52,977 nt of DNA from IMG/VR virus record IMGVR_UViG_3300048917_000597, positions 1 through 52,977 of that record. The stretch is one strand, 5' to 3'. Source of the stretch: a virus. Shown piece after piece: positions 28,831-52,977 of the stretch (the first letter of the stretch is position 1; each line of letters opens with the position of its first letter). The notes under the pieces were generated by a model, which saw nothing but the letters and a program-made list of their open reading frames with translations, did not search any database and was not told where the DNA came from. The translations under genes and the position numbers were made by a program.

Positions 28831-28833
28831 ATT

Positions 28834-32594: not shown

Positions 32595-32618
32595 CCGCCG
32601 CTGCGGTACAGCACCAGC

Positions 32619-32650: not shown

Positions 32651-32685
32651 GTATCAGGCACTTCACACGAGACGAGGGTACATCC

Positions 32686-34582: not shown

Positions 34583-34592
34583 TCGGGGGAGT

Positions 34593-34626: not shown

Positions 34627-34681
34627 TCCAGCCCCCGAGCTGAAGGTAGCGCCTCAGCATGAGACTTGCCTGGGTTTCAGA

Positions 34682-34702
34682 GAAAAACTTTTCGCGAATC
34701 CA
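34682..34702 (+). promoter_or_regulatory. Conserved intergenic motif GAAAAACTTTTCGCGAATCCA (copy 1)
   Basis: Nearly identical to 38932-38953 (GGAAAAACTTTCGCGACATCCA). It lies 44 nt upstream of the SSB start. A weaker relative occurs at 28096-28113. Confidence 0.55.
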
Positions 34703-34745
34703 GGCACGTAAGAAACCGAGACCCATCAAGTGAAAGGGGCCCACC

Positions 34746-35429: not shown

Positions 35430-35480
35430 GTCGGCCAGCGCTCCTCAGCCTTCGGGCTGATACAAGTCTGGCGCTCAACC

Positions 35481-35521
35481 GGTGGCCCCACCTCGGACTG
35501 CGTCCCCGGGGTGGGGCCACC
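35481..35521 (+). terminator. GC-rich intergenic hairpin (12-bp stem, 17-nt loop)
   Basis: GGTGGCCCCACC...GGTGGGGCCACC. It is preceded by TCAGCC-ttcg-GGCTGA at 35448-35463. Confidence 0.4.
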
Positions 35522-35549
35522 TTCATCCACCAACGTGAGGAAGAGACAG

Positions 35550-36263
35550 ATGCCTGAACGGTTCAGCGCCAGCGTTGCTGGCCGGCACATGGCGTGCCAC
35601 GCAAGCGCCAACCTGGAGCTGGCGATCCCGAACTACGTGCCGCCGGTCGAGGACCGGACGGTGGACAACGCGGCCAACCGCGGCACCAACATGCACGAGA
35701 TCCTGGCGAAAGCCGGTGAGCTCAGCACCCGTGACATGAACATGCTCGTCGAGGCGATGGCGTACGTCGCCATCCTGCGACGGGACCGCAGGTTCAAGGT
35801 GCTCAACGAGGTGAGCATGGTCGCCGACTGGCTGGCCACCAAGCCTCAGACCACGGCTGACGTGGTGCTCTACACGCAGGACGAGATCCACTTGATCGAC
35901 TACAAGACCGGGAAGATTCCGGTCGAGGTCAAGGAGAACGAGCAGCTGATGTACGGCGCCGTGACCTACGGTCACCTGGCACCGAAGGCCAAGGGCGTGA
36001 TGCTGCACATCGTGCAGCCGTGGGCCGACAACTGTGAGTCGTGGTTCGCGGACGCGACCAGGCTCAAGGTGTTCATGGACGACGCTCTCGCAGCAGAGGC
36101 TGCGATCGCAGCGGGTGATACGACCTTCGGGCCGAGTGACCACTGCAAGTTCTGCCCGGCCAACCCGCACAGCCGTGGGCTGAAGGGCAGGCCGTTGTGC
36201 CCAGCACTGATGGGCATGCTCTATCCGGACAAGACCGACGAAGCTGAGATCTTCAGCCTGTGA
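35550..36263 (+). CDS. PD-(D/E)XK nuclease, Cas4/RecB-like with probable Fe-S cluster
   Basis: ATG 35550 follows GAGGAAGAG. Motifs are ..DVVLYTQDEIHLIDYKTGK.. (D..D/ExK), QLMYGAV (QhxxY), a Cys in the N-terminal MACHAS, and the C-terminal CKFCPANPHSRGLKGRPLCP. Confidence 0.7.
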   Translation: MPERFSASVAGRHMACHASANLELAIPNYVPPVEDRTVDNAANRGTNMHEILAKAGELSTRDMNMLVEAMAYVAILRRDRRFKVLNEVSMVADWLATKPQTTADVVLYTQDEIHLIDYKTGKIPVEVKENEQLMYGAVTYGHLAPKAKGVMLHIVQPWADNCESWFADATRLKVFMDDALAAEAAIAAGDTTFGPSDHCKFCPANPHSRGLKGRPLCPALMGMLYPDKTDEAEIFSL

Positions 36264-36273
36264 AGGAGATGCA

Positions 36274-38385
36274 ATGCCGAACATGATCGGTCTTGACTTC
36301 GAGACCTACGGCGCGGTGAACCTGCCGCGGCACGGGCTCGCTCGCTACGTGAGCGACCCGTCGTTTCAAGCGCTGATCGGTAGCGTGAAGTTCCGCAACC
36401 AGCACGGGTTGCTGGACGGTGAACGGTTCAACTTCGTGCACTACAAAGACCAGCACACCGAGCTGCTGCAGAGGTACATCGGTGACAAGGTGATCGTGGC
36501 GCACAACGCCGGCTTCGAGCAGGCGGTGCTGCACTGGCTCGGGTTGGACTACCCGAGCTCGAGGTTCATCGACTCTGCAGTCGTGGCTCGTGGCGCGGGC
36601 TTCGGCAGCGGGCTCGAGGCTGCTGCTCCGCAGATCCTCGGCATGGACAAGATGGCTGCGGGCAAGGACCTGATCAAGTTGTTCTCGATCCCGGGTCCGT
36701 ACCAGGTGGCAAGCGGGTGCACCGACTTCGACCCGCAGATCATCGAGGATCATCCAGCAGAGTGGGCTCAGTTCGCTAACTACTGCGAGCTGGATGCGGA
36801 CCAGGGTCTGCTGATTGCCGAGGATCGGCTGTCGTTCCTGGGCCCGCAGGAGATGGCTTACCAGGCAGTGACGATGGACATGAACCGGCAGGGCTGGGTC
36901 GTGGACATCGAGAAGGTCGAGGAGATGCAGCGCCGCTACCACGAGAACATGGATGCGGCGCTGGCCAAGTTCCACCTGACCTGGCTTGGGCCTGGCGAGG
37001 AGCTCAACCTCAACAGCCTGAAGCAGATGAAGGAGTGGTGTGCCGAGCGGGGTGTGAAGTGCACGAGCTTCGACGAGAAGCACGTGGCCAAGTACCTGCG
37101 CCTGGTGGACCAGAAGCTGTTCGACGTGACTCTGTCGGAGGACCAGCGCATCGCCTACCTGGGTGTGTACGACCTGCTCGAGACCAAGCAGATCCTGGGT
37201 GGCAGCAGCTTGAAGAAGCTGCAGGTCATCCTCGACACGGTGGTCGAAGAGGATGGCGTGTACCGGTTGAAGGACCAGTACGTCCACGTGGGTGCTGGCC
37301 AGTCGGCACGCACCACGGGCCGGTCGGTTCAGATGCAGAACCTGAAGCGGCTGGCTCAGCCTGCTGACATGGACGAGCTCGACGATCTCGAGAGCGAGTG
37401 GAGCAACGGCAAGCTGGCGGAGAACATGCGCCAGGTCTTCACGGCCAGCGAGGTGACCGGCGAGTTGATCGTCGGTGACTTCAAGTCCGTGGAGTCCCGT
37501 GGCCTGGGCTGGCTGGCGAGCGAGACCTACAAGCTCGCGGCCTACGAGCGTGGCCAGGATCTGTACAAGGTGCTGGCGTCCACGATCTACAGCGTGGACT
37601 ACGACGACGTGACCAAGGAACAGCGGCAGACCGGCAAGGTCGGTGAGCTGAGCTGTGGTTACGGCGCCGGCGCTGGTGCGGTGGTGTCGTTCGCCGAGGG
37701 CATGGGTGTGAAGATGACCGAGGCCGAGGCAGCGAAGCTGGTGGCGGACTGGCGGTACGCCAACCCGAAGATCGTGGAGCTGTGGGACTGGCTCAACGAT
37801 GCGCTGCACCGATGCATCAGCAGCGGTGGGGTGCCGGAGACGCTCCTCGTTCGTGACGGCTACAAGGTCGTGATCGAGGGCTCGCCTACGCCTGCGTCGT
37901 TGGGCAAGCAGCACCCTGGTTCGATGTCCATCCGGTTGAGCATGATCGACAAGAACAACCGCGCGCTCCTCAAGCGGTACTTCCACGGGTGCTACCGCCG
38001 TGGCGGGAACATCGGCTACTACAAGCCGAGCGACCGCAAGACCGGGGATCTGTGGAAGAACCACTTCACGGATCCGAAGACCAAGCAGCTCAGGTTCTAC
38101 GAGCTGTACGGCGGCAAGCTGGCCGGCATCCTGACGCAGTCGTTGTGCCGGGAGATCTTCATGCGAGTGCTGCTGCAGACGCAGCATGCCTTCGCCGGCC
38201 GCTCGGAGGTCAACCTCGTCGGTCAGTTCCACGACGAGATCGTGCTGGACTGGAAGCCCAGCACGCTGGGCTCCGGGTTGAGCAACACGATGGCCCGGCT
38301 CGACGAGCTGATGTCGGACCGCGGCGATATGGTCAGCTTCCCGCTGGAGGCTGACATCAAGCACGACTACCGCTACACGAAGTGA
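36274..38385 (+). CDS. DNA polymerase, family A (Pol I-like) with 3'-5' exonuclease domain
   Basis: ATG 36274 follows GAAGGAG. Exo I IGLDFETYG, Exo II VAHNAGFEQAVL, Exo III YCELDAD. Pol motif A IVGDFKSVESR, motif B RQTGKVGELSCGYGAG, motif C GQFHDEIVLD. Confidence 0.9.
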   Translation: MPNMIGLDFETYGAVNLPRHGLARYVSDPSFQALIGSVKFRNQHGLLDGERFNFVHYKDQHTELLQRYIGDKVIVAHNAGFEQAVLHWLGLDYPSSRFIDSAVVARGAGFGSGLEAAAPQILGMDKMAAGKDLIKLFSIPGPYQVASGCTDFDPQIIEDHPAEWAQFANYCELDADQGLLIAEDRLSFLGPQEMAYQAVTMDMNRQGWVVDIEKVEEMQRRYHENMDAALAKFHLTWLGPGEELNLNSLKQMKEWCAERGVKCTSFDEKHVAKYLRLVDQKLFDVTLSEDQRIAYLGVYDLLETKQILGGSSLKKLQVILDTVVEEDGVYRLKDQYVHVGAGQSARTTGRSVQMQNLKRLAQPADMDELDDLESEWSNGKLAENMRQVFTASEVTGELIVGDFKSVESRGLGWLASETYKLAAYERGQDLYKVLASTIYSVDYDDVTKEQRQTGKVGELSCGYGAGAGAVVSFAEGMGVKMTEAEAAKLVADWRYANPKIVELWDWLNDALHRCISSGGVPETLLVRDGYKVVIEGSPTPASLGKQHPGSMSIRLSMIDKNNRALLKRYFHGCYRRGGNIGYYKPSDRKTGDLWKNHFTDPKTKQLRFYELYGGKLAGILTQSLCREIFMRVLLQTQHAFAGRSEVNLVGQFHDEIVLDWKPSTLGSGLSNTMARLDELMSDRGDMVSFPLEADIKHDYRYTK

Positions 38386-38388
38386 GAG

Positions 38389-38423
38389 GAGCCGGGCCCG
38401 TCACGGGGTAACGGGCCCGGCTC
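38389..38423 (+). terminator. GC-rich intergenic hairpin (13-bp stem)
   Basis: GAGCCGGGCCCGT-cacggggta-ACGGGCCCGGCTC, immediately after the polymerase stop. There is no U-tract. Confidence 0.5.
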
Positions 38424-38449
38424 TGATCTCCCACCAAGGAAGGAACACC

Positions 38450-38929
38450 ATGCAGGATACACAGGTGGTCGGGATCGACCCCGGATTGGTGCACACCGGG
38501 CTGGTGTCGATGACGTTCCAGCCGGCACTGCGTGAGATTCATCTGATGGACCGAGTCATCCTCGGGCCCGATGGTCCGGCAACCCAGGCAGCGATCCCGC
38601 TGAGTGGGCTGCAGCCCCACAAGTTCATCGAGGGCTACCGCCCGAGGTCGAACTTCCAGGGCGACAACCGCATGGTCAAGGCGGTTGATCACATCAAGGT
38701 GGCGACGCACGGGACCGTGCTGCTCAACACCGGTGTGAAGAAGGTGGTGCGGCAGCCCTTGATGGAGCTGCTGGGCGTGTGGCGATTCGCCACGAAGACA
38801 CACCACGACGACCTACGATCGGCTGCACGCATCGCGATCTTCGGGATGCTGAAGGACGAGCAGCTCAACAGCCTGGTGGCCCAGGTGGTCAGCGACCACC
38901 TCGAGGGCAACACCTGGGCTGTGCACTGA
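38450..38929 (+). CDS. RuvC-like Holliday junction resolvase
   Basis: The N-terminal VVGIDPGLVHTGLVSM is a RuvC-type first catalytic Asp motif. The C-terminal THHDDLRSAARIAIFG is D..DA-like. Confidence 0.7.
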   Translation: MQDTQVVGIDPGLVHTGLVSMTFQPALREIHLMDRVILGPDGPATQAAIPLSGLQPHKFIEGYRPRSNFQGDNRMVKAVDHIKVATHGTVLLNTGVKKVVRQPLMELLGVWRFATKTHHDDLRSAARIAIFGMLKDEQLNSLVAQVVSDHLEGNTWAVH

Positions 38930-38931
38930 CA

Positions 38932-38953
38932 GGAAAAACTTTCGCGACATCCA
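38932..38953 (+). promoter_or_regulatory. Conserved intergenic motif GGAAAAACTTTCGCGACATCCA (copy 2)
   Basis: Matches 34682-34702 apart from one deleted T and one inserted C. It starts 3 nt after the RuvC stop, 18 nt before ATG 38971. Confidence 0.55.
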
Positions 38954-38970
38954 CCAAGGAAGCAGGAGCT

Positions 38971-39282
38971 ATGGCAGAGCACAGAGATGGGACCGTCGGT
39001 GAGGTCATCGACGGGAGGCGCGGTGTCTACGGTGAACCGACCAACACCTTCCCGCGGATCGCGGAGGTGTGGTCCGGGATCATCGGCCACCACGTCAACG
39101 CGGTCGACGTACCGCTCATGCTGATGGGACTGAAGATCGTGCGCACCCAGGTGTGCCCGGACTACAGCGACAACAGCGACGACATCGAGGGGTTCCTCGA
39201 CATCTTCCGTGAGCTCGTGGGTGAGGACATGGTCCACGCCCGCCTGGTCTCGGAGTATCTCGAGATCAAGGCGGCCCGCTGA
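38971..39282 (+). CDS. Hypothetical protein (103 aa), DUF6378-like pattern
   Basis: ATG 38971 follows AGCAGGAG. RRGVYGEPTNTFPRIAEVWSGI...DVPLMLMGLKIVR...PDYSDNSDDIEGF resembles a recalled conserved phage family pattern. The track ORF start (38779) overlaps the RuvC gene. Confidence 0.6.
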   Translation: MAEHRDGTVGEVIDGRRGVYGEPTNTFPRIAEVWSGIIGHHVNAVDVPLMLMGLKIVRTQVCPDYSDNSDDIEGFLDIFRELVGEDMVHARLVSEYLEIKAAR

Positions 39283-39575
39283 TGAACGAGAGGGCGGAGC
39301 ACTGGTACACCGCCGAGTTCCTCGAGGAAGTACTGCGTGATCGACTGCTGTTTGCCGAAGACCGGCAGCGGATGTTCCACCGTCGGGCAACCGACGAGTA
39401 CTGCATCCCGCGTGACGTGGTGAAGAGGCTGGGTCTGCCTGTGGGCAGGGTCGAGCCGTACCACACGGACTCGCCTGAGGGACAGCGGCTCATCTCGCGA
39501 ACGCTGAAGAAGCCCAACGACCGTGGCGTCGTCACGTACCTGGCGGGCGTTGCTCGTCAGGCGGTGCCGGCATGA
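39282..39575 (+). CDS. Hypothetical protein (97 aa)
   Basis: TGATG junction, consistent codon bias, no motif. Confidence 0.6.
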   Translation: MNERAEHWYTAEFLEEVLRDRLLFAEDRQRMFHRRATDEYCIPRDVVKRLGLPVGRVEPYHTDSPEGQRLISRTLKKPNDRGVVTYLAGVARQAVPA

Positions 39576-39775
39576 GTGGCAGCCACGAGTCGATCAAGCT
39601 GAAGCGTCGACTCGAGAAGGCCGGCTTCACCGTGGAGCGCACGGGCGGCGGGAACTGGAAGGCGAGCAAGCCGGGTCGTACCGGCTTCGTCATCTTCGGG
39701 TTCACCGACTCCGGGCACAACACGTGGGCCAAGACCATCAAGCGCCTGCGGGCGCTCGGATACAAGGGGGACTGA
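39572..39775 (+). CDS. Small basic protein, HicA-like fold suspected (67 aa)
   Basis: ATGA overlap. LKRRLEKAGFTVERTGGGNWKASKP resembles the recalled HicA/YcfA pattern (L...Gf.......gsH....). No partner antitoxin gene is evident. Confidence 0.35.
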   Translation: MSGSHESIKLKRRLEKAGFTVERTGGGNWKASKPGRTGFVIFGFTDSGHNTWAKTIKRLRALGYKGD

Positions 39776-39776
39776 G

Positions 39777-39866
39777 ATGCACAAGTGCTACCTGTGTGGC
39801 TACCGGTTCGAGGACCGGCAGAGTCTCCTCGCTCACGAGGAGGCGTGCGATGGAGACGGTGCGTGA
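39777..39866 (+). CDS. C2HC zinc-finger mini-protein (29 aa)
   Basis: Below the ORF-track cut-off. The sequence is MHKCYLCGYRFEDRQSLLAHEEACDGDGA (CxxC-x12-H-x4-C). It starts 1 nt after the upstream stop. Confidence 0.4.
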   Translation: MHKCYLCGYRFEDRQSLLAHEEACDGDGA

Positions 39867-40155
39867 GCCGGCGTGGCTCGTGGCCATGGCGGATCAGCGC
39901 CTGGCTCTCATGGCGGAGAAGGTCTCGGCTTCGTCGCTGAAGCTCTACGGTCCGGAGATCATCATGACTCCGCTGACCGAGCCTGCGGAGAACGCGAGCA
40001 ACATGGAGCGCACCCGGTGGGAGCGGTCGTGCGACAACTGCGGCCGCTACTGCAAGAAGGGCACGTTCATCACCGGGCACGTGATGCGTCAGCTCCACGG
40101 CCACGCCGTGCTGATGACGTTCGGCATGTGCCCCGAGTGCAAGGAGCTGATATGA
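39850..40155 (+). CDS. Zinc-ribbon protein (about 101 aa)
   Basis: ATG 39850 (alternative 39886). Contains CDNCGRYC...CPEC. The upstream part of the track ORF (from 39523) overlaps other genes. Confidence 0.55.
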   Translation: METVREPAWLVAMADQRLALMAEKVSASSLKLYGPEIIMTPLTEPAENASNMERTRWERSCDNCGRYCKKGTFITGHVMRQLHGHAVLMTFGMCPECKELI

Positions 40156-40376
40156 GCAGGCACACCGCCGAGAAAGAAGCACCCGGCAAGGTCGTCCTGT
40201 GGTGGCGGCGCTTCTGGGATCGACACGACGACGGAACCAAGCACCACTGGTCGAAGATCGAGCAGACCGTCAACGCTCACTGGTGCGAGTGGGACTACTG
40301 CCGGTGCTTCTGGCAGCGGTGCGGCGTCTGCGGTGAGCGGCGTATCTACAGCGCCGGGTCCGAGGAAGTCCGATGA
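40152..40376 (+). CDS. Cys/Trp/His-rich small protein (74 aa)
   Basis: ATGA overlap. HWCEWDYCRCFWQRCGVCGERR suggests metal binding. Confidence 0.55.
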   Translation: MSRHTAEKEAPGKVVLWWRRFWDRHDDGTKHHWSKIEQTVNAHWCEWDYCRCFWQRCGVCGERRIYSAGSEEVR

Positions 40377-40422
40377 CCACCCGCGTCATTCCGCCCGGTT
40401 TGACTGACACTGAGGAGCTGCC

Positions 40423-41610
40423 ATGAACGAGCTCCTCAACACGTTGCAGGCCAGGGCTGGTGTCAGGTTCTTCGACTACCAGCTCGAGGCGCTGGCTCGT
40501 GCTGCACAGCAGACGGGTGATCTACGGCGCTGCCTGTTCTACAAGACCGGCGCCGGCAAGAGCCTGACCGGGCTGAGCATGATGGCCCAGTGGGGGGTGA
40601 ACGACGTCGTGGTGATCACGCCGCCGTCCACGTTCGAGCAGTGGGTGGTGCTGGGTCTGCGGCTCGGTGTCAAGGTGACGCCGATGTCGCATGCCAAGTA
40701 CCGCATGAAGGACACGCGGCTCAGCCGCAGCCAGGCTGTGATCGTCGACGAGTTCCATCTGCTCGGCGGTCACGGCAAGCAGGGCTGGAAGAAGCTGGAC
40801 ACCATGGCACGGCACCTGAAGGCACCGCTCCTGGTGATGTCGGCGACGCCGAACTACAACGACGCGGAGCGGGTGTACTGCATCCAGCACGTGATCGCGC
40901 CGCACACGGCGAAGGGCGGCTACCTCGAGTTCCTCTACAAGCACTGCGAGACAGAGGCCAGCGCCTTCGGCGTGGAGCCGATCGTGCTGGGCTTCAGGCA
41001 GTACCCGGACGCCGCGGCGTACCTCGCTGCGCTGGACAACGTGGACTACCTGCCCGACGACTTGGTCTATCAGATCAAGGACATCGACATTCCGGTGGTG
41101 AACCCGCCGGAGTTCAGCAGGTACGGGCTCAACCGGAGGACCGGTCGCATCATCGCTTCTCAGATCGAGGAGCGGCACGCGATCGTCAACCTGTCGTTGA
41201 TCGGTGACGACGGCTACATCCGGCAGGACGTGTACGACCTGCTGGCTCAGCTGATCGGTGAGGCAACGACACCAGTCCTGGTGTTCGCTGCACACTCGAC
41301 GGTGGCTGACGCCCTGGACAAGATGCTCGCGTTCATGGGTGTGAAGTCAGCAACGGTGACCGGCAGCACGCCGGCCAAGAAGAAGCAGGCACGCATCGAA
41401 GCCTTCAAGGATGGAGTGCTCGACGTGCTCGTTGGTACAGCAACGCTGGCCACCGGCACGGACGGGCTCGACAAGATGTGTGACTACCTACTGATCCTCG
41501 ATGACACCGACGACGCAAGCCTGCGCCGTCAGCTCATCGGTCGCATCATGCCGCGCGGTGAAGACACCGACGCCAGCGGCAAGCATGTGTTCCGCCTTCT
41601 GCTCACGTGA
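40423..41610 (+). CDS. Superfamily 2 helicase (DEAD/DEAH-box-like)
   Basis: Motif I FYKTGAGKSLTG, motif II VIVDEFHLLG, motif III VMSATPN. The C-terminal domain has VGTATLATGTDG. Confidence 0.8.
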   Translation: MNELLNTLQARAGVRFFDYQLEALARAAQQTGDLRRCLFYKTGAGKSLTGLSMMAQWGVNDVVVITPPSTFEQWVVLGLRLGVKVTPMSHAKYRMKDTRLSRSQAVIVDEFHLLGGHGKQGWKKLDTMARHLKAPLLVMSATPNYNDAERVYCIQHVIAPHTAKGGYLEFLYKHCETEASAFGVEPIVLGFRQYPDAAAYLAALDNVDYLPDDLVYQIKDIDIPVVNPPEFSRYGLNRRTGRIIASQIEERHAIVNLSLIGDDGYIRQDVYDLLAQLIGEATTPVLVFAAHSTVADALDKMLAFMGVKSATVTGSTPAKKKQARIEAFKDGVLDVLVGTATLATGTDGLDKMCDYLLILDDTDDASLRRQLIGRIMPRGEDTDASGKHVFRLLLT

Positions 41611-41618
41611 CCTGGGGG

Positions 41619-41639
41619 GATCGGGTGCAACACCCGATC
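41619..41639 (+). terminator. Intergenic hairpin, 9-bp stem with 3-nt loop
   Basis: GATCGGGTG-caa-CACCCGATC, 9 nt after the helicase stop. There is no U-tract. Confidence 0.4.
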
Positions 41640-41657
41640 ACGAGAGAAGGAGGACCG

Positions 41658-41783
41658 ATGGCTGACGCTATCGAGGGACGCATCGAGCGACTGCTGGATC
41701 AGCTAGAACGACCGGACCTGAACGACTCGGAGATCGAGCAGATCAAGGAGAAGATCAGGTTCTTGCGGGAGCAGCAGTCGTGA
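41658..41783 (+). CDS. Helical mini-protein (41 aa)
   Basis: Below the track cut-off. There is a strong RBS GAAGGAGG 6 nt upstream. The sequence is MADAIEGRIERLLDQLERPDLNDSEIEQIKEKIRFLREQQS. Confidence 0.55.
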   Translation: MADAIEGRIERLLDQLERPDLNDSEIEQIKEKIRFLREQQS

Positions 41784-41793
41784 CCAACGTGGG

Positions 41794-41822
41794 GGCGGTG
41801 CCGGTTATTAGCCGGCGCCGCC
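41794..41822 (+). terminator. GC-rich intergenic hairpin (11-bp stem with one G-U pair)
   Basis: GGCGGTGCCGG-ttattag-CCGGCGCCGCC. Confidence 0.4.
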
Positions 41823-41847
41823 TCCACCCACCAAGGAAGAGGAGCTC

Positions 41848-43239
41848 ATGCTTGAGCTGAAGACCAAGAAGGAGCTGGCCACCGAAGCCTTCAAGCTGGG
41901 GCAAGGGCACCAGCTCGTGCGGTATCGCAGCGTGACCTACATCCCTGCGGACTTCGAGACCAGAGACGCATCCGTGACACCGGACGCCGACCGTACGATC
42001 TGGCTGCCGCTCACGCGGAAGCAGATCCAGCGGCTGGCGGCTGATCAGTTCAACACGCTCTTCGGCAGTGACGGGGAGCTGAGTGCGTTCGACTTCATGG
42101 TGGCGCAGACAGCCACCAACATCGACACCGACATCACCTCGCTGCTCGTGCGCACCGAGCAAGGGCTGATGGAGCTGGACGACACCGGCACGCTGGTGCC
42201 GAACAGCGGGGAGTTCAGACCCAACACTCTGGTGCCGATGCTCAACCCGGACCCGGTCGAGAAGGACCGGGTCTTTGCTGTGATCAGCGGCTGGCTCGAC
42301 TCCGACGAGGAGGCCGAGTCGTTGCTGGCTCACCTGGCCTCGGCGCTGGCGCCTGGCTGGTCGGCAGTGAAGTACGTGCTGCTGCTGGGTGAGGGGCGCA
42401 ACGGCAAGAGCCTGCTGCTGAAGATGCTGCACGGTGTGTTCGGCGCCCACAACGTGAGCGACGTGACCCGGCAGGACATCAGCGAGGGCAGCGCCGTGGT
42501 GACCGAGCTCAATGGCAAGCTGCTGAACATCGTCTTCGACGGGCAGGCCGTGTACCTGAAGGACAGTGGCCGGGAGAAGTCGCTGATCGCTGGCGAGCCG
42601 GCGCCCATCCGTCGTCTCTACGAGTCGACGGCGACGACGGTGCAGACCAACGCACTGTTCATCGAGGGTCTGCAGCGGGAGCCGAAGACCAGCGACAAGT
42701 CGACCGCCTTGCAGAAGCGGTTGGTGAGGTTCCAGTTCCCGAACGTCTACGCGCTGAGCCACAAGTTCGAGCGCGAGATGCTGACCGAGGCCAGCCTCGG
42801 TGCGTTCCTGTCCCTGCTTGTCGACAGGTACGTGCTCGAGGATCACGTGGCCGAGAGGCTGGCGCCGACACACAAGGCGATCGAGCTTCAGCTGGAGCAG
42901 ATGTTCGTCAACAGCATGGGTCTGCAGTTCATCAAGTTCAGCGAGGAGACCGAGCCCATGGGTGTGGGCGCGTACCTCGGCAAGCCAGTGGGCGAGCTCG
43001 TCAAGGCGTTCCAGTCCTGGCGGCTGAAGGAGATGGACATGAGCAACTGGGCGGAGCCGGATGTGCTGGCGCTGTTCGGTCCGCTGATCAACACCGACCG
43101 GAAGTCCGAGAGGGCGGCCGGCAAGGTGCGCAAGGTTCGCGTCGTGACCTCGTTCAAGCAAGAGGCCACGGCTTTCATCGACACACTGAAGGGAGATCCA
43201 GATGACGCCGAGCTCCTCGCTGCCTTGGTGGAGGACTGA
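41848..43239 (+). CDS. D5/P4-family primase-helicase (SF3 NTPase)
   Basis: ATG follows AAGGAAGAGGAG. Walker A LLLGEGRNGKSLLLKML, then LNIVFDG, then ..ALQKRLVRFQFPN.. as in the recalled phage/plasmid primase P4-family C-terminal domain. Confidence 0.75.
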   Translation: MLELKTKKELATEAFKLGQGHQLVRYRSVTYIPADFETRDASVTPDADRTIWLPLTRKQIQRLAADQFNTLFGSDGELSAFDFMVAQTATNIDTDITSLLVRTEQGLMELDDTGTLVPNSGEFRPNTLVPMLNPDPVEKDRVFAVISGWLDSDEEAESLLAHLASALAPGWSAVKYVLLLGEGRNGKSLLLKMLHGVFGAHNVSDVTRQDISEGSAVVTELNGKLLNIVFDGQAVYLKDSGREKSLIAGEPAPIRRLYESTATTVQTNALFIEGLQREPKTSDKSTALQKRLVRFQFPNVYALSHKFEREMLTEASLGAFLSLLVDRYVLEDHVAERLAPTHKAIELQLEQMFVNSMGLQFIKFSEETEPMGVGAYLGKPVGELVKAFQSWRLKEMDMSNWAEPDVLALFGPLINTDRKSERAAGKVRKVRVVTSFKQEATAFIDTLKGDPDDAELLAALVED

Positions 43240-44065
43240 CGACTACGACGGCGCCACCCGTGACGCAACGATTGCGTCGTTCGCCGGGCCCAAGGGAATG
43301 GCTCTGGTGAGGGCGTGGCCTGATGGTCGCACCGATCCAGGCTGGGGCCTTACGTCACCGAGTGGCGACGGCTTCATGCTGCGCTACATGCGTGGCGAGT
43401 TCAATGAGCGGCGCGTGCTGTACGGCTACGTCCGTGACAAGTGGGCGTTCGCCTACGTGATGCGCTCGCTGAAGCTGGTGGTCGTCGACATCGACGGCAA
43501 GAACGGTGGGCTCGAGCACGCCAAGAAGCTCGGCATGCTGCCGCCCACCATGGCGGAGACGTCCAAGAGCGGGAACGGGTATCACCTGTTCTACGAGCAC
43601 GACGAGCCCTGGGACAACGACAAGGGCTTCGGTGCCCTGAGCGACCGCATTGGGATCGAGCAGGGGGTGGACATCCGGGCGACCGGCTGTGTCTACCACC
43701 ACAAGCAGCAGCGCTGGAACGACCGTCGGGTGGCGAAGCTGCCCGAGTTCCTGCGTGACCTGTTGTCGCACCGTGAGCAGAAGCTCGCGGCCACACATGC
43801 CAGGATCGACACGATCCTGGCTGACCATGATGAGCTGGAGGTTCTCATGCTGCACGACGAGATCATGACGGAGCTGAAGAAGCCGATCCCCTCGGGGAAG
43901 CGGAACGTGACGCTCTTCGCGATCGGCAACCAGATGCGCCAGGCGCAGATCCCGGGCTGGGAGCAGTTGGTCACCGACCGGGCCACGGCCGTGGGGCTGC
44001 CGGCGGACGAGACGCTGAAGCTGATCAGCAACATCAATCACTACGGCTCGCCGGTCACGCCGTGA
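43202..44065 (+). CDS. Bifunctional primase-polymerase (prim-pol) domain protein
   Basis: ATG 43202 lies 6 nt after GGGAG, with a 38-nt overlap on the upstream gene. Contains LKLVVVDIDGKNGG (DxD) and SGNGYHLFY (sGxGxHhyf). Confidence 0.7.
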   Translation: MTPSSSLPWWRTDDYDGATRDATIASFAGPKGMALVRAWPDGRTDPGWGLTSPSGDGFMLRYMRGEFNERRVLYGYVRDKWAFAYVMRSLKLVVVDIDGKNGGLEHAKKLGMLPPTMAETSKSGNGYHLFYEHDEPWDNDKGFGALSDRIGIEQGVDIRATGCVYHHKQQRWNDRRVAKLPEFLRDLLSHREQKLAATHARIDTILADHDELEVLMLHDEIMTELKKPIPSGKRNVTLFAIGNQMRQAQIPGWEQLVTDRATAVGLPADETLKLISNINHYGSPVTP

Positions 44066-44367
44066 CGACGCGGCTGGTCACCGTCGAGTTCGTGCCCGGG
44101 TTCGAGGGCATCGGTGAGCGCGTCACCACCGACGACGGCTACAAGCGTGGCGGCTGGCGCTACCAGTGCGACGGCATGCCGAGCCTTGCCGGTTGCCACA
44201 GCGAGATCGTAGTGCCCCGGCGCTACGTGCGGTTCGGCATCAAGCCCTCGGGCTGGTGGGTGACGTGGGGTGAGGACGAGGACTGGAAGCCGGACAAGGA
44301 CCTGGTCCTGACCTTCTGCCCGCGATGCACCGCGATCATCCGGGGCGAGAAGATCCCGGTGCGTTGA
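44062..44367 (+). CDS. Hypothetical protein (101 aa) with Cys pairs
   Basis: GTGA overlap. YQCDGMPSLAGCH...FCPRC suggests a zinc ribbon. Confidence 0.55.
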   Translation: MTTRLVTVEFVPGFEGIGERVTTDDGYKRGGWRYQCDGMPSLAGCHSEIVVPRRYVRFGIKPSGWWVTWGEDEDWKPDKDLVLTFCPRCTAIIRGEKIPVR

Positions 44368-44368
44368 G

Positions 44369-44413
44369 AGAGCAGGGCTCGCGACCTTCGGGTTGCGGGT
44401 CCTGCTCTTTTTT
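44369..44413 (+). terminator. Rho-independent terminator
   Basis: 18-bp stem AGAGCAGGGCTCGCGACC-ttcg-GGTTGCGGGTCCTGCTCT (3 G-U pairs, TTCG tetraloop) running into TTTTTT (44408-44413). It starts 2 nt after the stop. Confidence 0.85.
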
Positions 44414-44419
44414 CCGGGT

Positions 44420-44425
44420 TAGGAT
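44420..44425 (+). promoter_or_regulatory. Candidate -10 element (TAGGAT) for a leaderless transcript starting at ATG 44432
   Basis: TAnnnT hexamer, then 6 nt, then the A of the ATG. There is no Shine-Dalgarno sequence between the terminator and the ATG. This pattern is known for actinobacterial leaderless mRNAs. Confidence 0.35.
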
Positions 44426-44431
44426 GCGCTC

Positions 44432-44977
44432 ATGGCCAAGGACCTGAGCGCGGGGGAGAGCTTGCTCTCCGAGGTGGAGATTCTGCTGAGGAAGAGGTTC
44501 GAGGCGGGGGAAGTGTCTCGGTCGCGCCTGCCGTCGCACGCGCGACCGGCCGCCGGGTCCGAGCGGATCGACCAGCTGACTCTCCCGGATTCGGAGAGAA
44601 GCAAGATGCCCTTCACCAAGGACAAGTTCCTGGTGCGCGAGAACCCTCACCTGGTCCAGTGGGAGCGTGAGGTCCGCAAGTTCCTGCGCAACCTGTCACC
44701 GACGCACGGGCACCGTGTCGCCGCGGTGATGATCTACGAGTGGGCCACCGGGATCCGGGTAGCGGACCTGATGGCCGAGGGCGGGTCGGCACAGGCTGAC
44801 CTCCGCAAGATCAACCAGGTGCTGCGGTTCTACTTCGACAAGCCGTACATGACCTACATCGCGGGTCGCAAGATCCCGAAGGCTTATCGGGTGCGGCCGG
44901 GGTACTACATCCGCCGGCACCGGCCGCTCACGCTCACGCTCTACGCGGAGTACTGCGAGGGCACGCTGTACCCGTGA
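44432..44977 (+). CDS. Hypothetical basic protein (181 aa), possible DNA-binding regulator
   Basis: It is the first ORF after the strong terminator. The basic C-terminal half (RKINQVLRFYFDKPYMTYIAGRKIPKAYRVRPGYYIRRHR) carries no verified motif. Confidence 0.5.
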   Translation: MAKDLSAGESLLSEVEILLRKRFEAGEVSRSRLPSHARPAAGSERIDQLTLPDSERSKMPFTKDKFLVRENPHLVQWEREVRKFLRNLSPTHGHRVAAVMIYEWATGIRVADLMAEGGSAQADLRKINQVLRFYFDKPYMTYIAGRKIPKAYRVRPGYYIRRHRPLTLTLYAEYCEGTLYP

Positions 44978-45324
44978 GCACCAACGGCAAGTTCCGGGTC
45001 GAGCCGGACGGGACGCACGTCTACAAGGACTACCACCGCTACAAGCCGGTGCCCTTGGAGGATCGGAAGTACGCCGTGAGGCGTCCGGACGACCCCCGGG
45101 CGGTCAGGTTCCACGGTCAGTGGTTCCTACCCCTGGACGTGCTGCCCGACGAGAGGCGCTGTATGCCCCTCACAGCGCCTGACAGCGAGACGCTGACACA
45201 TCGGGCCAGGTGCACCTGTGAAGTCTGCCGTAGGCCCGCTGCTGCGGCGCTGTGGGCCCGGAAAGCCCGGCAGCTCGAGCCGGTCACACGTGCAGGGTTC
45301 GTTCCTGGACCTGCTCGTCGCTGA
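44974..45324 (+). CDS. Hypothetical protein (116 aa)
   Basis: GTGA overlap. Its 3' end overlaps the convergent minus-strand gene by 41 nt. Confidence 0.45.
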   Translation: MSTNGKFRVEPDGTHVYKDYHRYKPVPLEDRKYAVRRPDDPRAVRFHGQWFLPLDVLPDERRCMPLTAPDSETLTHRARCTCEVCRRPAAAALWARKARQLEPVTRAGFVPGPARR

Positions 45325-45950: not shown

Positions 45951-46233
45951 CGAGCTCACCTCCTGTCAGATCTACGAAGTCCACCTGGATGTCGTTGCGT
46001 GTGGCCGGGTGGCTGCCGGCACGGCGCCGGCCGACGAGCCGGTCCATGATCATTCTGCGCGCCTTGTTCGCACGGACCAGGCTGCCACGCACGTTCTGAT
46101 CGGGGCGGTTGGCGATGTCGAACAGCGCGCGGGCGACCAGCTCGTGGGCCGGGTGCTGGATCACCTCGTCGTCGACGGGCCGCGGGTAGTCGGCCACGTT
46201 CTGCAACGCGGCTCGGATGCTGACGGGCTTCAT
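45913..46233 (-). CDS. Hypothetical protein (106 aa) translationally coupled to the large terminase
   Basis: ATGA overlap with the terminase stop. The track ORF extension to 46449 lies inside the terminase gene. The helix ..RGSLVRANKARRMIMDRLVGRR.. loosely recalls small-terminase/HTH helices; no call is made on that basis. Confidence 0.55.
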   Translation of the reverse strand: MKPVSIRAALQNVADYPRPVDDEVIQHPAHELVARALFDIANRPDQNVRGSLVRANKARRMIMDRLVGRRRAGSHPATRNDIQVDFVDLTGGELDEPAEGVQPAAG

Positions 46234-47693
46234 CTGGCCCACACTCCTGAGTAGTCCTGCACGTAGTCGGTGCTGGTGTTGGTCACGCCCGGCTGCTCGA
46301 AGAAGACACCGCCGAAGAACTGCAGCTCCTTGACCGCCTGGTCCGCGTAGCGCAGGGCGTCCATCATGTGGCTGAAGCGATCGTGCAGGGGCTTGTCGGT
46401 CCACTGCTGCAGCTTGTGGCTGAACTCGTACTTGTAGTTCTCGAGGCACTCGAGGATCCAGTCGCAGTTCTCGCTGTGGATCACCGTGTTGTAGAGCTCC
46501 ATGCGGGTCTGCTGGATGTCGGTCACGATGTCGTAGTCACCCTGGCGGGAGCCAGGGATCTTGAACGCCTTGTTCGACTTGGCCAGCACCGAGACGTTGG
46601 GGAACTTGGTGCGCATCATGTCGGCCGGCGTGGTGTTCACGGCCTTCTCGTGGTGGTCACCGTCCCAGGGCAGGATGATCTGGGCGATCTTGTTGAACCA
46701 GGGCTTCTCCCGCAGCACGTCGACGTACTCGGGCAGGGCCTTGCCGTGGCCCTCGCCGCAGTCGTAGAGGAACTTCCGGCCGTTGATCCACTGGAAGGCG
46801 ATCCACGCTGTGGCATCGGAGTGCATGCCGGAGGAGCCGATGTCGAAGACCACGTAGATCGGGTGCGCGGTGTTGATGTTGAAGATGTGTGACCGGCCCT
46901 CGGCCAGCAGCTTCATGTACGCCTCGCCGTAGACGGCGGCGGCATCCATCTCCTCGAACGAGCAGTAGTACTCCTGCTCGAACATCCGGTCGTTGCCGAA
47001 CCGCTTGCGGTAGGAGTCGCGGTCCTCCTCGAGCGTGGCCTCGCTGCGGACGAGCGGCAGGCCCTCGCGCCGCATCATCTCGTTCAGGTCGTCGATCGTG
47101 CGGATGATGACCTGGAAGTTGTCGTTGCCCTTCTGGGCTTCCATCAGCTGCCACAGTGGGTTCTTCCGCTTACCACGTGGCGTGCTCACGACCATGAGCC
47201 GCTTGTCCTCGGCCTCGTTGCTGATGATCGGCATGAGCCGGGGCAGCGGGTCCTCGCGTGTGAACAGCGCAAGCTCGGTGAAGGCGTAGTCCTGGAAGGA
47301 CGTGCCGACACCGTTGTTGTCCTTGCCGGACTGGAAGTAACCCTGCAGCTTGAGCCGGCTCTTGTTGGTGAACCGGCCCTCCATGACCGTGTCCTTCCAA
47401 GCGACCAGCTCGGACGGCACGTTGTCCTGCAGGGCCTGGATGTAGTGGCCGCTGTCAGGGTCGTAGTAGGTCTTGTCCCACAGGATGTCGCGGATGACGG
47501 GGTTGTTCAGGGAGACGTAGACACCGGTGGTCTTCGGTGTGCGCAGCCGGCGGCCGCACATCTCCATGCTCATGGCCACGTCCTTGCCCGACTGCCGGGG
47601 AAGGACGGCGACGCCGATGCGGCGCCGAGCCCACATCTTGTGGAGCTCCTCTTGGTAGGGCCGTGGTCGGTAGTGGACAGGGAACGTGGCCAT
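46230..47693 (-). CDS. terL: Terminase large subunit
   Basis: 487 aa. Walker A-like VLPRQSGKDV, then MVVSTPRG, then a nuclease-domain Asp in YVVFDIGSSG. Confidence 0.85.
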   Translation of the reverse strand: MATFPVHYRPRPYQEELHKMWARRRIGVAVLPRQSGKDVAMSMEMCGRRLRTPKTTGVYVSLNNPVIRDILWDKTYYDPDSGHYIQALQDNVPSELVAWKDTVMEGRFTNKSRLKLQGYFQSGKDNNGVGTSFQDYAFTELALFTREDPLPRLMPIISNEAEDKRLMVVSTPRGKRKNPLWQLMEAQKGNDNFQVIIRTIDDLNEMMRREGLPLVRSEATLEEDRDSYRKRFGNDRMFEQEYYCSFEEMDAAAVYGEAYMKLLAEGRSHIFNINTAHPIYVVFDIGSSGMHSDATAWIAFQWINGRKFLYDCGEGHGKALPEYVDVLREKPWFNKIAQIILPWDGDHHEKAVNTTPADMMRTKFPNVSVLAKSNKAFKIPGSRQGDYDIVTDIQQTRMELYNTVIHSENCDWILECLENYKYEFSHKLQQWTDKPLHDRFSHMMDALRYADQAVKELQFFGGVFFEQPGVTNTSTDYVQDYSGVWAR

Positions 47694-50826: not shown

Positions 50827-51615
50827 TCAGTCGACCTTTCCTGCCAGCTGCAGCTGGCGGTACTCCGCTTGGATGGCGCGCACGGTCGTGCGCATGTCAT
50901 AGGCCAGCACGTTCTCGATGTAGACGCGCTTGACCTCGTCGGGCACCAGCTCGGGCCCGCCGTAGTACTCCTGCACCTCGAACAGATCGAAGGCGGCCTG
51001 TCCGTTGTAGGTGTGGATCTTGAAGGGGAAGCGCGGGTCGCGGTAGATGCCGACCTGGTAGGACGGCAGGGTGATCTTCACCTCGGCCGGGCGTGCCGGC
51101 TGGTCACCGGAGACCTCGAAGGTCTCGGTGTACTCGCCGGACTTCACCGTCTGCTCCTTGACTCCGGTCTCGAGGTAGGTCAGCACGCGGCGTGCCCGCG
51201 GCTTGGGGAACGCGGGCTTGAGGATCTCCTCCTGCAGCCAGGCTCGACCTTCGTCGTCGATGCGGATGATCTCGTCGTCGGCCTTCTGGTTCAGCCGCTG
51301 GCCGGCGAACTCGTTGGGGTCGCGCGGCTGGCGTACAGGCGCCGGGTGGGCCGCGGCCTCGGCCTGGTCGGCGAGCGTGGCCATGTCGAACGGCGGGATC
51401 ACCGGCGCCTGCTGCACCGGCGGGTCGTACGGAGGAGGAGCGGGCGGCTCGGACTGCGGCGTGGGCTCCTCGAAGACCAGCGGCGGGGCGTCGTCGCCGA
51501 GGCCCTCGTACGCCTTGCGCAAGTCCTCGGTGCTGTACTCGCGGTAGTGGTGATCGAAGGTCACCCCCGCCGTCTTCAGCGCCTGGTAGTAGACGCTCTT
51601 CTCCGACTGGCTCAT
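50827..51615 (-). CDS. Hypothetical protein (262 aa), first gene of the minus-strand block next to motif array B
   Basis: ATG 51615 lies 4 nt after GGAG. It has a Pro-rich linker (EPTPQSEPPAPPPYDPPVQQAP). No motif was recognised. Confidence 0.65.
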   Translation of the reverse strand: MSQSEKSVYYQALKTAGVTFDHHYREYSTEDLRKAYEGLGDDAPPLVFEEPTPQSEPPAPPPYDPPVQQAPVIPPFDMATLADQAEAAAHPAPVRQPRDPNEFAGQRLNQKADDEIIRIDDEGRAWLQEEILKPAFPKPRARRVLTYLETGVKEQTVKSGEYTETFEVSGDQPARPAEVKITLPSYQVGIYRDPRFPFKIHTYNGQAAFDLFEVQEYYGGPELVPDEVKRVYIENVLAYDMRTTVRAIQAEYRQLQLAGKVD

Positions 51616-51698
51616 AACGCTCCGTAGGTAGGTTGGCTAGAGGATCGAGCGAACAGTAGCACCAGCATGGCGCCCTGGCGCCTAACCCCGGCTCGTGG

Positions 51699-51927
51699 CG
51701 TGTAGACACCTTGCGGGTGTCTACAGGGTGTCTACACGTTTGCCCAGGTCAGAGGCGGTTTTCAGCCGATGTAGACATGTAGACACCCCCTTCTTTGAAA
51801 CCGGTAACAGGATGTGAACAGCGGTTGAAAAGTTTGGGGGTGTCTACGTGTCTACAACGGACGAAAAGGGCCTCTGACCTGCGGTTATGTGTAGACACCT
51901 GGGGGGTGTCTACAGGGGTGACTACAC
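51699..51927. repeat. Motif array B: about 9 exact plus 1 variant copies of GTCTACA/TGTAGAC; paralogous to array A
   Basis: Contains GTGTAGACACC-ttgcg-GGTGTCTACAGGGTGTCTACAC (51700-51737), TGTAGACATGTAGACACCCCC..TTTGAAACC (51770-51802), GGGGGTGTCTACGTGTCTACA (51836-51856) and GGCCTCTGACCTGCGGTTATGTGTAGACACCTGGGGGGTGTCTACAGGGGTGACTACAC (51869-51927). Confidence 0.9.
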
Positions 51928-52025
51928 ATCGGGACGTCCGGCGGTGTTTCGACACGCCGATCGGGGGTAACCTGGAGAGGGTCTCGGACCCGTAACGGCT
52001 GGCTGCCCCTGGCCGTTGGAAGGTG

Positions 52026-52196
52026 GTGACCACCACCGTGCACGTTCTCTATCTCGTCCTGCTCGTGCTCTCAGCCGCGTGCTTCCTGATCGCGGCGTGT
52101 GGCTGCGTGCGCCATCCGGAGCGGATCCACCTGATCCCGCTCGGTCTGTTCTTCGGCGTGATGGTGCCGCTGATCCAGCACTGGCGCGGCCTCTAG
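52026..52196 (+). CDS. Small membrane protein (56 aa, 2 TM), isolated plus-strand gene
   Basis: Below the track cut-off. GTG 52026 directly follows GGAAGGTG; an in-frame alternative is GTG 52038, 9 nt further downstream. The sequence is VTTTVHVLYLVLLVLSAACFLIAACGCVRHPERIHLIPLGLFFGVMVPLIQHWRGL. GC3 bias is strong. The stop shares the palindrome CTAG with the convergent fibre gene stop. Confidence 0.5.
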   Translation: MTTTVHVLYLVLLVLSAACFLIAACGCVRHPERIHLIPLGLFFGVMVPLIQHWRGL

Positions 52197-52977
52197 CCGG
52201 TGTGCACGACCTGGAGCTTGGTCGGGTCGGCGCTGACATCCTTGCCCTCGAGGTACAGGCGGATGTCGGTGTCGCGCATCGTGTTGGTCTTGCCCGGGTA
52301 GGTCCGAACCTTCAGCGGCCAGCTGTCGACGATCGGGTCCTTGAAGGTCAGCCACGGTGTGGCGCCGGTTCCGATCGCAGAGACCTGCGCGACGTACGGC
52401 GCCTTGGTGCCGCGGAAGTCACAGCGGTCGAAGAGGTAGTCGGCCTGCAGCGACTGCTCGATGTTGACCGCCTTGCGGCTGTTGACGTAGGAGCAGCCGG
52501 TGAACTTGTACGTGCCGGCGCACTGGAACATCGCGAGCGCGAAGCCGAACACGGCACCGTCGTAGACCGAGTCGAGGTCGGTGTGGTCACCAGTGGTGTA
52601 GTTGTAGCCGAGCAGCGTGGCGGCCACGCCACCGCCGGTGAGCTTGAGCCGCTCGAGGCGCGCGCTGATGCAGCGCAGCAGCGCAGCGGAGAACGTCTCT
52701 CCCGGCGGGCCCGAGTCGTTGCCGGGGATCGAGTCGGCCCACATGTCATGGACGTAATGGCCGGTGCCGGCGCCCAGGCCGAGACCGCCGTAGTACGGCG
52801 TCGGCTGCTTGGTGCCCTGCAGGGTGAAGTTGCCGAGCTCGACGGGCTGGCCGTTGCCGGCCCGCATCAGCTTCAGCTGGTTCGTCGGCTTCGTGCCGGA
52901 GCCGGAGTAGACCGGCGCCACCTTCTTCGAGGTGTTCTCCGGCAGGTAGTAGATCGTCTTCTCCGGGCTGTGCCCGA
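52193..52977 (-). CDS. Tail fibre/tailspike-like protein, 3' portion (continuation of 353..1 across the window break; 52851..52977 duplicates 1..127)
   Basis: The frame is open from the window end to stop 52193. The joined gene is 336 aa. The C-terminal part (..LKLTGGGVAATLLGYNYTTGDHTDLDSVYDGAVFGFALAMFQCAGTYKFTGCSYVNSRKAVNIEQS..) suggests a short right-handed beta-helix/pectate-lyase-like fold (inference). Confidence 0.75.
   Translation of the reverse strand, partial: GHSPEKTIYYLPENTSKKVAPVYSGSGTKPTNQLKLMRAGNGQPVELGNFTLQGTKQPTPYYGGLGLGAGTGHYVHDMWADSIPGNDSGPPGETFSAALLRCISARLERLKLTGGGVAATLLGYNYTTGDHTDLDSVYDGAVFGFALAMFQCAGTYKFTGCSYVNSRKAVNIEQSLQADYLFDRCDFRGTKAPYVAQVSAIGTGATPWLTFKDPIVDSWPLKVRTYPGKTNTMRDTDIRLYLEGKDVSADPTKLQVVHTG
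52851..52977. repeat. Terminal direct repeat, copy 2 (identical to 1..127)
   Basis: Same 127-base string as the window start. It lies inside a coding region, so it is most simply an assembly overlap of a circular contig rather than a biological terminal repeat. Confidence 0.97.

Follow-up and report, generated by a model that had tools for sequence, protein, structure and literature searches.

A mirror-symmetric iteron array, duplicated in one clade of EK/Burro-related podoviruses, as a candidate second replication origin

The window, which is the whole stretch of 52,977 nucleotides that was analysed (IMG/VR virus record IMGVR_UViG_3300048917_000597), contains a 226-bp array at positions 51701-51926 that consists of ten iterons of 8-9 bp arranged in mirror symmetry. 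This array is referred to as array B. A related array at positions 28905-29144 is referred to as array A. We judge the chances to be about even that array B is a second copy of the iteron-type replication origin of this actinobacterial phage, and that this copy was duplicated within one clade of its family. Binding, melting and origin activity at array B are what we infer from the features described below.

The preliminary description of this DNA had placed array B at 51699-51927, which is confirmed from the window sequence. The 8-mer TGTAGACA occurs in array B in eight exact copies and two copies with one mismatch (CGTAGACA at 51841 and TGTAGTCA at 51919). The earlier count of about nine exact cores and one variant is obtained with the 7-mer TGTCTAC, which gives nine exact copies and one variant. 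The word GTGTCTACA occurs 12 times exactly in the window where 0.21 occurrences are expected, and none of 100 shuffles reached 12. The exact copies of this word are confined to the two arrays, with five in array A (28905-29117) and seven in array B (51701-51914).

Array B begins on the left with three repeats (one forward and two reverse), which are followed by a second motif CAGGTCAGAGGC, a forward tandem pair and a centre of 53 nt. The right of the centre consists of a reverse tandem pair, the motif GCCTCTGACCTG, and again three repeats (one forward and two reverse). No strand is assigned to either array as a whole, nor to the outer blocks and the centre of array B. The outer-left block (51701-51736) contains TGTAGACAC at 51701-51709 on the plus strand and GTGTCTACA at 51717-51725 and 51728-51736. 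Its first two repeats form a palindrome with a 10-bp stem, and the block has invariant columns in eight relatives. The left copy of the second motif (51745-51756, plus strand) is mirrored by the right copy (51870-51881, minus strand). This motif also occurs twice in array A, and its exact occurrences in the window, in either form, are restricted to arrays A and B. The inner-left tandem pair TGTAGACATGTAGACAC (51770-51786, plus strand) and the inner-right tandem pair GTGTCTACGTGTCTACA (51840-51856, minus strand) are both directed to the centre. The centre (51787-51839, 53-55 nt) contains the words TTTGAAAC / GAAAAGTTT and is the proposed melting region. The outer-right block (51890-51926) contains TGTAGACAC at 51890-51898, GTGTCTACA at 51906-51914, and the variant GTGACTACA at 51918-51926. 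Five repeats lie on each side of the centre, and the two innermost tandem pairs face each other. The mirror is near-complete: it extends over the inner elements and breaks down just at the outermost repeat of either side. The mirror is complete in relatives that have extra outer copies. It had been claimed that array B carries one extra unit relative to array A in both its first and its last block. This holds for the first block (three repeats in B, two in A) and fails for the last block, which has three repeats in both arrays.

The GC content of array B is 0.53, compared with 0.65-0.68 for its flanks and 0.65 for the genome. The centre has a GC content of 0.51, which is among the lowest 1.5% of the 55-nt windows of the genome. 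The origins of SaPIs have 6-12 short iterons, a central AT-rich region, and at least two opposed iterons on each side (PMC9371898). Array B has ten short repeats in 226 bp that are halved around a low-GC centre by opposed tandem pairs. This design fits the SaPI origins and argues for array B being an origin, while the centre is merely relatively AT-rich, which counts against it.

Array B as a whole is one large imperfect dyad with arms of 64 nt that are 83% complementary and are separated by 45 nt. Its single-stranded DNA fold has a free energy of -77 kcal/mol (z = -13), and its outer pairs form 10-bp stems. The single large dyad, the mirrored second motif and the low-GC centre were all missed in the preliminary description. 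Such a strong dyad is what would be expected if the arrays acted as DNA hairpins or cruciforms, or as RNA hairpins, that serve for entry or promotion by a virion RNA polymerase as in N4, or for processing or termination. The giant virion protein also has an invariant D-x-DGD motif that keeps its relative position in all the relatives that were checked, and a virion RNA polymerase of such a kind is fused to a giant protein in P23-45 (PMC10770324). We consider hairpins rather improbable nonetheless. What is conserved is the 8-mer, which occurs in many spacings and orientations that include tandem copies unable to pair. Pairing is not conserved, and the spacer positions exhibit no covariation. 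The search of array B against Rfam 15 gave no family at the gathering score, with matches to microRNA hairpins at 23-33 bits where 68-100 are required. The P23-45 virion polymerase uses AT-rich promoters (PMC10770324), and a suitable conserved AT-rich element lies at 28119-28185 instead.

The D-x-DGD motif of the giant protein suggests, from its sequence, a two-barrel virion RNA polymerase. The search of the PDB by sequence with the region of this motif gave no match. Instead of, or besides, being sites of helicase loading, the arrays could serve the injected giant protein as sites of entry or start. The repeat pairs would then extrude as hairpins on supercoiled or freshly injected DNA, the polymerase would recognise these hairpins, and the first transcription would be coupled to replication priming at the same sites. 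We hold this to be quite improbable. If true, promoter and origin would follow a logic that is new for actinobacteriophages.

The gene content of the window is that of a lytic podovirus, and the window is related to the Microbacterium EK/Burro podoviruses. Its closest cultured relatives by protein are Arthrobacter phage MissAmericana and Microbacterium phages Araxxi, Burro and Akoni, which have terminase identities of 60-74% to the window. The EK/Burro-type relatives are circularly permuted podoviruses with a virion-associated gene of more than 13 kb, and they are lytic with no repressor reported (PMC7302621). The scan of IMG/VR with two repeat patterns identified about 25 related contigs with arrays of 8-11 copies, and the scan with the variant word identified 14 further stretches. 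About 30 metagenomic relatives have the same array in the same two places, and several contigs carry an A-type and a B-type array together. Many metagenomic contigs of the family break off a few hundred bases or less from an array, which is most simply explained by assembly breakage at the repeats. BLASTN of the region against GenBank phages gave no match. The motif words were absent from the literature searched, and neither PMC7302621 nor PMC8281081 mentions such arrays for cluster EK or for Burro.

The cultured relatives have the A-position array alone, with the same construction and different 8-mers. The A-position word is AGGTAACG in Burro (nine copies) and Araxxi (11 copies), GGTTACGC in Akoni (seven copies), and TCGTTACA in MissAmericana. 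The arrays of Burro and Araxxi exhibit a clear layout of a tandem pair, a centre of 53-54 nt (GC 0.34-0.39) and an inverted tandem pair. The arrays of Akoni and MissAmericana are less regular. Across the relatives the centres have GC contents of 0.34-0.63. Centre lengths are mostly 45-46 or 53-55 nt, which is one helical turn apart, and range over 50-80 nt in array A and several relatives. The prevailing spacing by one helical turn is consistent with an origin. Judged by this distribution, array A is the copy of the whole family and array B was added within one clade.

The alignment of array A with array B gives identities of 65% (direct orientation) and 58% (inverted). The former agrees with the earlier proposal that B duplicates A. 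It had also been proposed that a single factor acts at both arrays, which is probable as the repeat variant is identical in A and B wherever both were seen. In many members TGTAGTCA replaces TGTAGACA in every copy of both arrays of a genome; L166 and L174, which are the two arrays of one contig, are matched in this variant. A family-wide element of which the word changes in concert again argues for an origin. A further suggestion was that recombination between the two arrays could split the genome into two circles. The longest exact runs common to A and B are merely 20 nt in direct and 26 nt in inverted orientation, and the arrays are therefore likely to be poor substrates for homologous recombination.

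The alignment of eight B arrays has 68 invariant columns and a mean column identity of 53%. Iterons account for 56 of the 68 invariant columns and the second motif for six (hand count), while the repeats make up about one third of the columns of the alignment. The comparison indicates that the repeats are near-invariant while the spacers drift and that the repeats are under selection, which is a further argument for an origin. The position of array B is also conserved although the flanking proteins of the relatives are just 50-60% identical.

These observations bear on whether array B could be a MITE-like selfish palindrome that inserted here, or a neutral copy of array A that has no function itself. 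Its absence from the cultured relatives would agree with this, and so would its palindromic and non-coding nature, its length of 226-300 bp, and its variable surroundings, where the window has extra genes and relatives have small accessory ones. The constancy of its position between diverged neighbours, the invariance of the repeats beside drifting spacers, and the match of its repeat variant to that of array A all speak against it, and no target-site duplication was seen by eye in the flanks. We regard this explanation as very improbable.

Array B lies within a long series of structural genes. The minus-strand super-block starts with the 4807-aa gene (13528-27951) and continues through the structural genes. 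On the circular map, it crosses the ends of the window and proceeds through 52921-52193, array B and 51615-45284. The large terminase gene (46230-47693) is inside the block 51615-45284. The 262-aa gene 3' of array B (50827-51615, minus strand) is kept beside the B-type arrays in relatives. The distances to the neighbours are close to those given before, with 86 nt from the ATG of this gene to the array and 96-99 nt from the array to a small plus-strand ORF. The relatives run from the homologue of the 1156-aa 'nozzle' gene (2099-5569 in the window) through the array to the homologue of the 262-aa gene on one strand. In the window, three additional genes separate the nozzle gene from array B. 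Pfam and PHROGs recognised the large terminase alone among the genes around array B.

The preliminary description regarded array B as lying at a divergent strand switch and controlling a terminase/lysis block. Neither claim is upheld. The flanking genes 52193-52921 and 50827-51615 are both on the minus strand, and the sole plus-strand feature is an ORF of 57 aa. No sigma-70-like promoter was found in 51400-52400, and no lysis genes were detected in the block by Pfam or PHROGs. MissAmericana, Burro, Araxxi and Akoni express the block without array B, and the homologous genes in these cultured relatives are 67-154 bp apart or are split just by small genes, with no array between them. By this gene order, array B lies between two co-directional structural genes and is not needed as a promoter for the downstream block, because the same genes abut in cultured relatives that have no array. 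Expression that does without array B also favours an origin. The annotation is corrected in that the terminase-containing block belongs to a single long structural operon, and array B does not switch it separately.

The 57-aa ORF (52023-52196, plus strand) has a GTG start at 52023 and a two-helix, membrane-like product. One weak homologue (45% identity over 44 aa, BLASTP E = 0.039) occupies the equivalent position in the closest relative, and no homologue was found in the remaining relatives compared. A second relative carries a different small gene, also on the plus strand, on the opposite side of the array. Going by these matches, the 57-aa ORF is probably a real small accessory gene that is outside the conserved element.

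In the window, L160 and L161, small plus-strand genes lie beside array B and would depend on a local promoter. This touches on the explanation that the arrays are operators at which one repeat-binding regulator times the flanking blocks, for instance by stopping read-through to the packaging genes or by driving the small gene. Both arrays lie in non-coding gaps between gene blocks. The palindromic pairs TGTAGACAC-N7-GTGTCTACA are typical of dimeric regulators, and relatives encode WhiB or ribbon-helix-helix proteins. We nevertheless regard operators as unlikely. The promoter search and the abutting genes of the cultured relatives described above both weigh against them. Both arrays are located within co-directional units: array A lies between the plus-strand gene 28242-28547 and the plus-strand gene that starts at 29333, one gene inside the early unit and outside the true divergent gap (27951-28242). 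The mirror design is unchanged across different transcriptional contexts. Pfam (E <= 1) gave no helix-turn-helix or other regulator domain in 20 small proteins of the window, and the relatives are lytic with no repressor reported (PMC7302621).

The location of array B upstream of the block that ends in the large terminase gene also raises a packaging role, in which array B would be a pac site read by a small terminase from the block just downstream. Pac sites can hold repeated boxes, as in phage SPP1. The cultured relatives are circularly permuted headful packagers (PMC7302621), and they package without array B. The family-wide copy is array A, which is in the early region at 17-23 kb from the terminase gene. 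Two pac sites in one genome would be unusual, and no small terminase was recognised beside array B by Pfam and PHROGs. A pac site is given very little credence here. By comparison of the relatives, both the pac site and the selfish or neutral insertion fit the data poorly.

The candidate reader of the repeats is encoded in the replication module, which is the plus-strand block 29333-45324. This module contains a MoxR-type AAA protein, a gp2.5-like single-stranded DNA-binding protein, an exonuclease, a family A polymerase, a SNF2-type helicase, a DUF5906/D5-like SF3 helicase of 463 aa (41848-43239, plus strand), and a Prim-Pol primase (43202-44065, plus strand) that is the partner of the helicase. 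The DUF5906 helicase is the proposed initiator. Its AlphaFold model has a mean pLDDT of 80 and exhibits at the C-terminus two helices (381-394 and 403-410) that are followed by a beta-hairpin (414-436). The best full-length PDB match of this model by Foldseek is the SaPI5 primase-helicase PriRep5 (7ola/7om0, TM 0.59-0.65), and the next structural matches are ASFV PrimPol and poxvirus D5/E5. The Pfam assignment to DUF5906 and the model together predict a C-terminal winged-helix-like domain on the SF3 helicase of the window. The fit of the model to the SaPI5 primase-helicase supports an origin at the arrays. The P4 alpha protein and the pRN1 replication protein have primase, SF3 helicase and winged helix in that order (PMC2777425).

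The C-terminus of the helicase appears to co-diverge with the repeat word. The ratio of C-terminus identity to core identity was compared among seven sequences from about four lineages. This ratio is 0.88-0.97 for pairs with the same word at a core identity of about 0.5, 0.33-0.65 for pairs with different words, and intermediate (0.78-0.80) for pairs with a common GTAACG core. The ratio between the window and L022, which have the same word, is held even at 50% core identity. The helicases of the window and MissAmericana have identities of 0.52 in the core and 0.27 in the C-terminus. In these seven sequences, the C-terminal 80 residues of the helicase appear to behave like a specificity determinant. 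In a scan of all shared proteins for class specificity, two regions scored above the helicase C-terminus, which took third rank at about 2.3 sd. These are the exonuclease, which differs over the greater part of its length, and the C-terminal portion of the single-stranded DNA-binding protein. No clean covariation was found between the A/T switch at repeat position 6 and the C-terminal residues of the helicase. The podovirus family that comprises Microbacterium EK/Burro, Arthrobacter MissAmericana and numerous genomes from soil metagenomes is abundant, and the search for helicase homologues found 762 sequences.

Araxxi and Akoni have a common host and different repeat words, which points to a phage-encoded reader of the repeats and not a host factor. 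Host DnaA was rejected as the reader. The repeat fits seven of the nine positions of TTGTCCACA / TTATCCACA, with T at position 6 where the consensus is C. No exact DnaA box occurs in the window, and its five matches with one mismatch are at chance level and outside both arrays. Phages that infect the same host also have different repeat words. The AAA protein of the replication module (32686-33648) was rejected as a DnaA-like initiator, as it is MoxR/midasin-like instead.

Arrays of the same 8-mer were also identified directly 3' of SF3 primase-helicase genes in four unrelated elements (L028, L030, L031 and L035). The C-termini of these helicases are unrelated to that of the window, and their repeats are oriented differently. 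We read these arrays as analogues that were thrown up by very large collections and that still show the usual nature of such arrays; as such, their place beside primase-helicase genes favours an origin. The arrays of low-GC contigs with the same 8-mer are likewise treated as analogues, because the search for proteins that these contigs have in common with the window gave PolA alone (26% identity). The scan of bacterial genomes for tandem TGTAGACA gave mostly chance single matches and few true arrays.

Comparison with known systems suggests that array B is best filed as a hitherto undescribed member of the iteron-origin kind. The SaPI/PICI origins are similar in their split short iterons, their opposed pairs, and an SF3-like helicase with a C-terminal winged helix, which is predicted here. 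The reader of SaPI origins is a self-loading helicase, which recognises them through its C-terminal winged-helix domain and of which probably one hexamer is loaded on each side (PMC9371898). The differences are that SaPI repeats are 5-6 bp long and those of the window are 8-9 bp, that the window has an extra mirrored motif CAGGTCAGAGGC and two copies of the array per genome, and that SaPI is a satellite whereas the window is a lytic podovirus with its own DNA polymerase. The SaPI origin is also directly 3' of rep, whereas arrays A and B (at 28.9 and 51.7 kb) are not directly 3' of the proposed initiator gene.

Phage P4 reportedly has an ori/crr layout with the repeat TGTTCACC. Its likeness to the phage of the window lies in octamer repeats, two clusters, a small genome, and one primase-helicase with a C-terminal winged helix, which is the proposed reader here. 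It differs in that alpha is a DnaG-type primase fused to a helicase, whereas the Prim-Pol of the window is a separate gene, and in that ori and crr of P4 are not mirror-symmetric palindromes. Inverted sites for an initiator-helicase also flank an AT-rich centre in herpes simplex oriL/oriS, SV40 and papillomavirus, where several copies of the origin per genome and head-to-head loading of helicases are found. Their sequences and initiators are unrelated to those of the window (UL9 is an SF2 helicase), and the likeness is an analogy only. Short conserved intergenic repeats have been reported in other Microbacterium clusters (EC, EF, EG and EI) (PMC7302621). Those are single motifs upstream of many start codons, whereas array B is a dense cluster of ten sites in one or two places.

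If array B is an origin, the SF3 helicase-initiator (41848-43239) would bind the 8-9-bp repeats TGTAGACA(C) through its C-terminal winged-helix-like domain. Two helicase rings would load head to head at the facing tandem pairs and open the low-GC centre of 53 bp, and the Prim-Pol primase and the family A DNA polymerase would start bidirectional synthesis. Array B would have arisen when the array was duplicated, in this clade, into the space that separates the nozzle gene from the 262-aa gene, and selection would have retained it. Several observations stand against an origin. Both arrays are distant from the helicase gene (8.5 and 13 kb), unlike in SaPI. GC skew is positive across the whole window, with no sign change at array A or B. 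A second conserved motif CAGGTCAGAGGC is present besides the iterons, and the conserved words TTTGAAAC of the centre suggest another specific contact. The distant helicase gene, the skew that does not switch at the arrays, the extra conserved words, and the A/T variant that the helicase residues do not track are the reasons why we place the origin at even chances.

If the arrays are origins, they would provide a defined pair of initiator and site for a lytic actinobacteriophage. The repeat words of the family, of which there are at least four, would be a natural series of altered specificities for the reading of DNA by a winged helix. The arrays could also supply small parts for shuttle replicons in Microbacterium and Arthrobacter. 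The second copy, which is specific to this clade, would permit a direct test of the effect of an extra origin in a 53-kb phage.

The site that array A (28905-29144) occupies in the window, flanked by the first plus-strand gene (28242-28547) and the gene that begins at 29333, also bears an array in the nearest cultured relatives. These arrays were identified in the Microbacterium phages Burro (L154 17916-18140), Araxxi (L155 18523-18767), and Akoni (L156 16470-16792), and in the Arthrobacter phage MissAmericana (L032 17802-18072). They are built from 8-mers other than those of the window, and palindromes similar to TTCCCATGGGAGACATGGGAA separate the outer repeats from the inner repeats in Burro, Araxxi, and Akoni. 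The arrays at this position in these published cultured phages are previously undescribed.

The repeat word also differs in a sub-group of relatives, where TGTAGTCA replaces TGTAGACA in all of the approximately 10 copies. The arrays with the variant word are found at L157 18485-18781, L161 19784-20017, and L162 19565-19784, and also in L166 and L174. Both arrays of one genome carry the variant, and the exchange of TGTAGACA for TGTAGTCA is a concerted change of the repeat set. The window itself has three occurrences of TGTAGTCA. Arrays of the identical 8-mer TGTAGACA were also identified in four unrelated elements (L028 56-273, L030 2599-2857, L031 10868-11105, and L035 3064-3415), in each case directly 3' of a gene for an SF3 primase-helicase that is either Prim-Pol plus DUF3987 or VapE-like. 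One of these elements is a 7-kb contig of Limosilactobacillus pulli with very high coverage.

Further repeat families flank array A at 28790-28835 and 29265-29335. Words containing GCTAGC (ctcgctagcgtcagctagcgttttgctagcacagctagc) are repeated in this neighbourhood, and GGGAGTGAGAG repeats immediately precede the gene at 29333. The true divergent gap, which separates the start of the giant gene from the first plus-strand gene, holds an AT-rich stretch (TATACATATATATGTATGG..., 28119-28185) that is a candidate promoter region. This stretch exhibits 85-89% identity in L002 and L026, and MissAmericana has a similar TATATACATATATATATGTATA.

In this family, contigs frequently terminate at a distance of 50-700 bp from an array (L002, L007, L009, L012, L013, L021, L167, L168, L170-L173, and L175), and the window, with its ends at 1 and 52977, starts approximately 1 kb from array B (51701-51926). 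Such ends probably reflect assembly breakage at the repeats, and they may instead be real DNA ends. The block from the terminase gene to array B is a region of variable cargo. In the relative L161, this block includes a gene (15894-16148) with an Acb2/Tad1 hairpin domain (anti-CBASS/Thoeris sponge family). Over the whole length of the window, the plus-strand GC skew is positive everywhere, independent of gene strand, while the AT skew switches sign with gene strand. No tRNA genes were found in the whole window.

The giant virion protein of 4807 aa, encoded on the minus strand (13528-27951), carries GDYDGDK at residue 941. This D-x-DGD motif, set within QV(S/G)H..L....GDxDGD(K/T), shows no variation at the corresponding position in MissAmericana, Burro, Araxxi, Akoni, L002, and L009; these giant proteins and that of the window are less than 35% identical, yet the motif is kept. 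A 2020 study of these phages (PMC7302621) set the giant protein only against the N4 virion RNA polymerases and reported no similarity. In phage P23-45, a two-barrel RNA polymerase is fused to a tape-measure protein of 5002 aa (PMC10770324). The D-x-DGD motif borne by the giant virion protein of the window is the signature of the catalytic site in two-barrel RNA polymerases.
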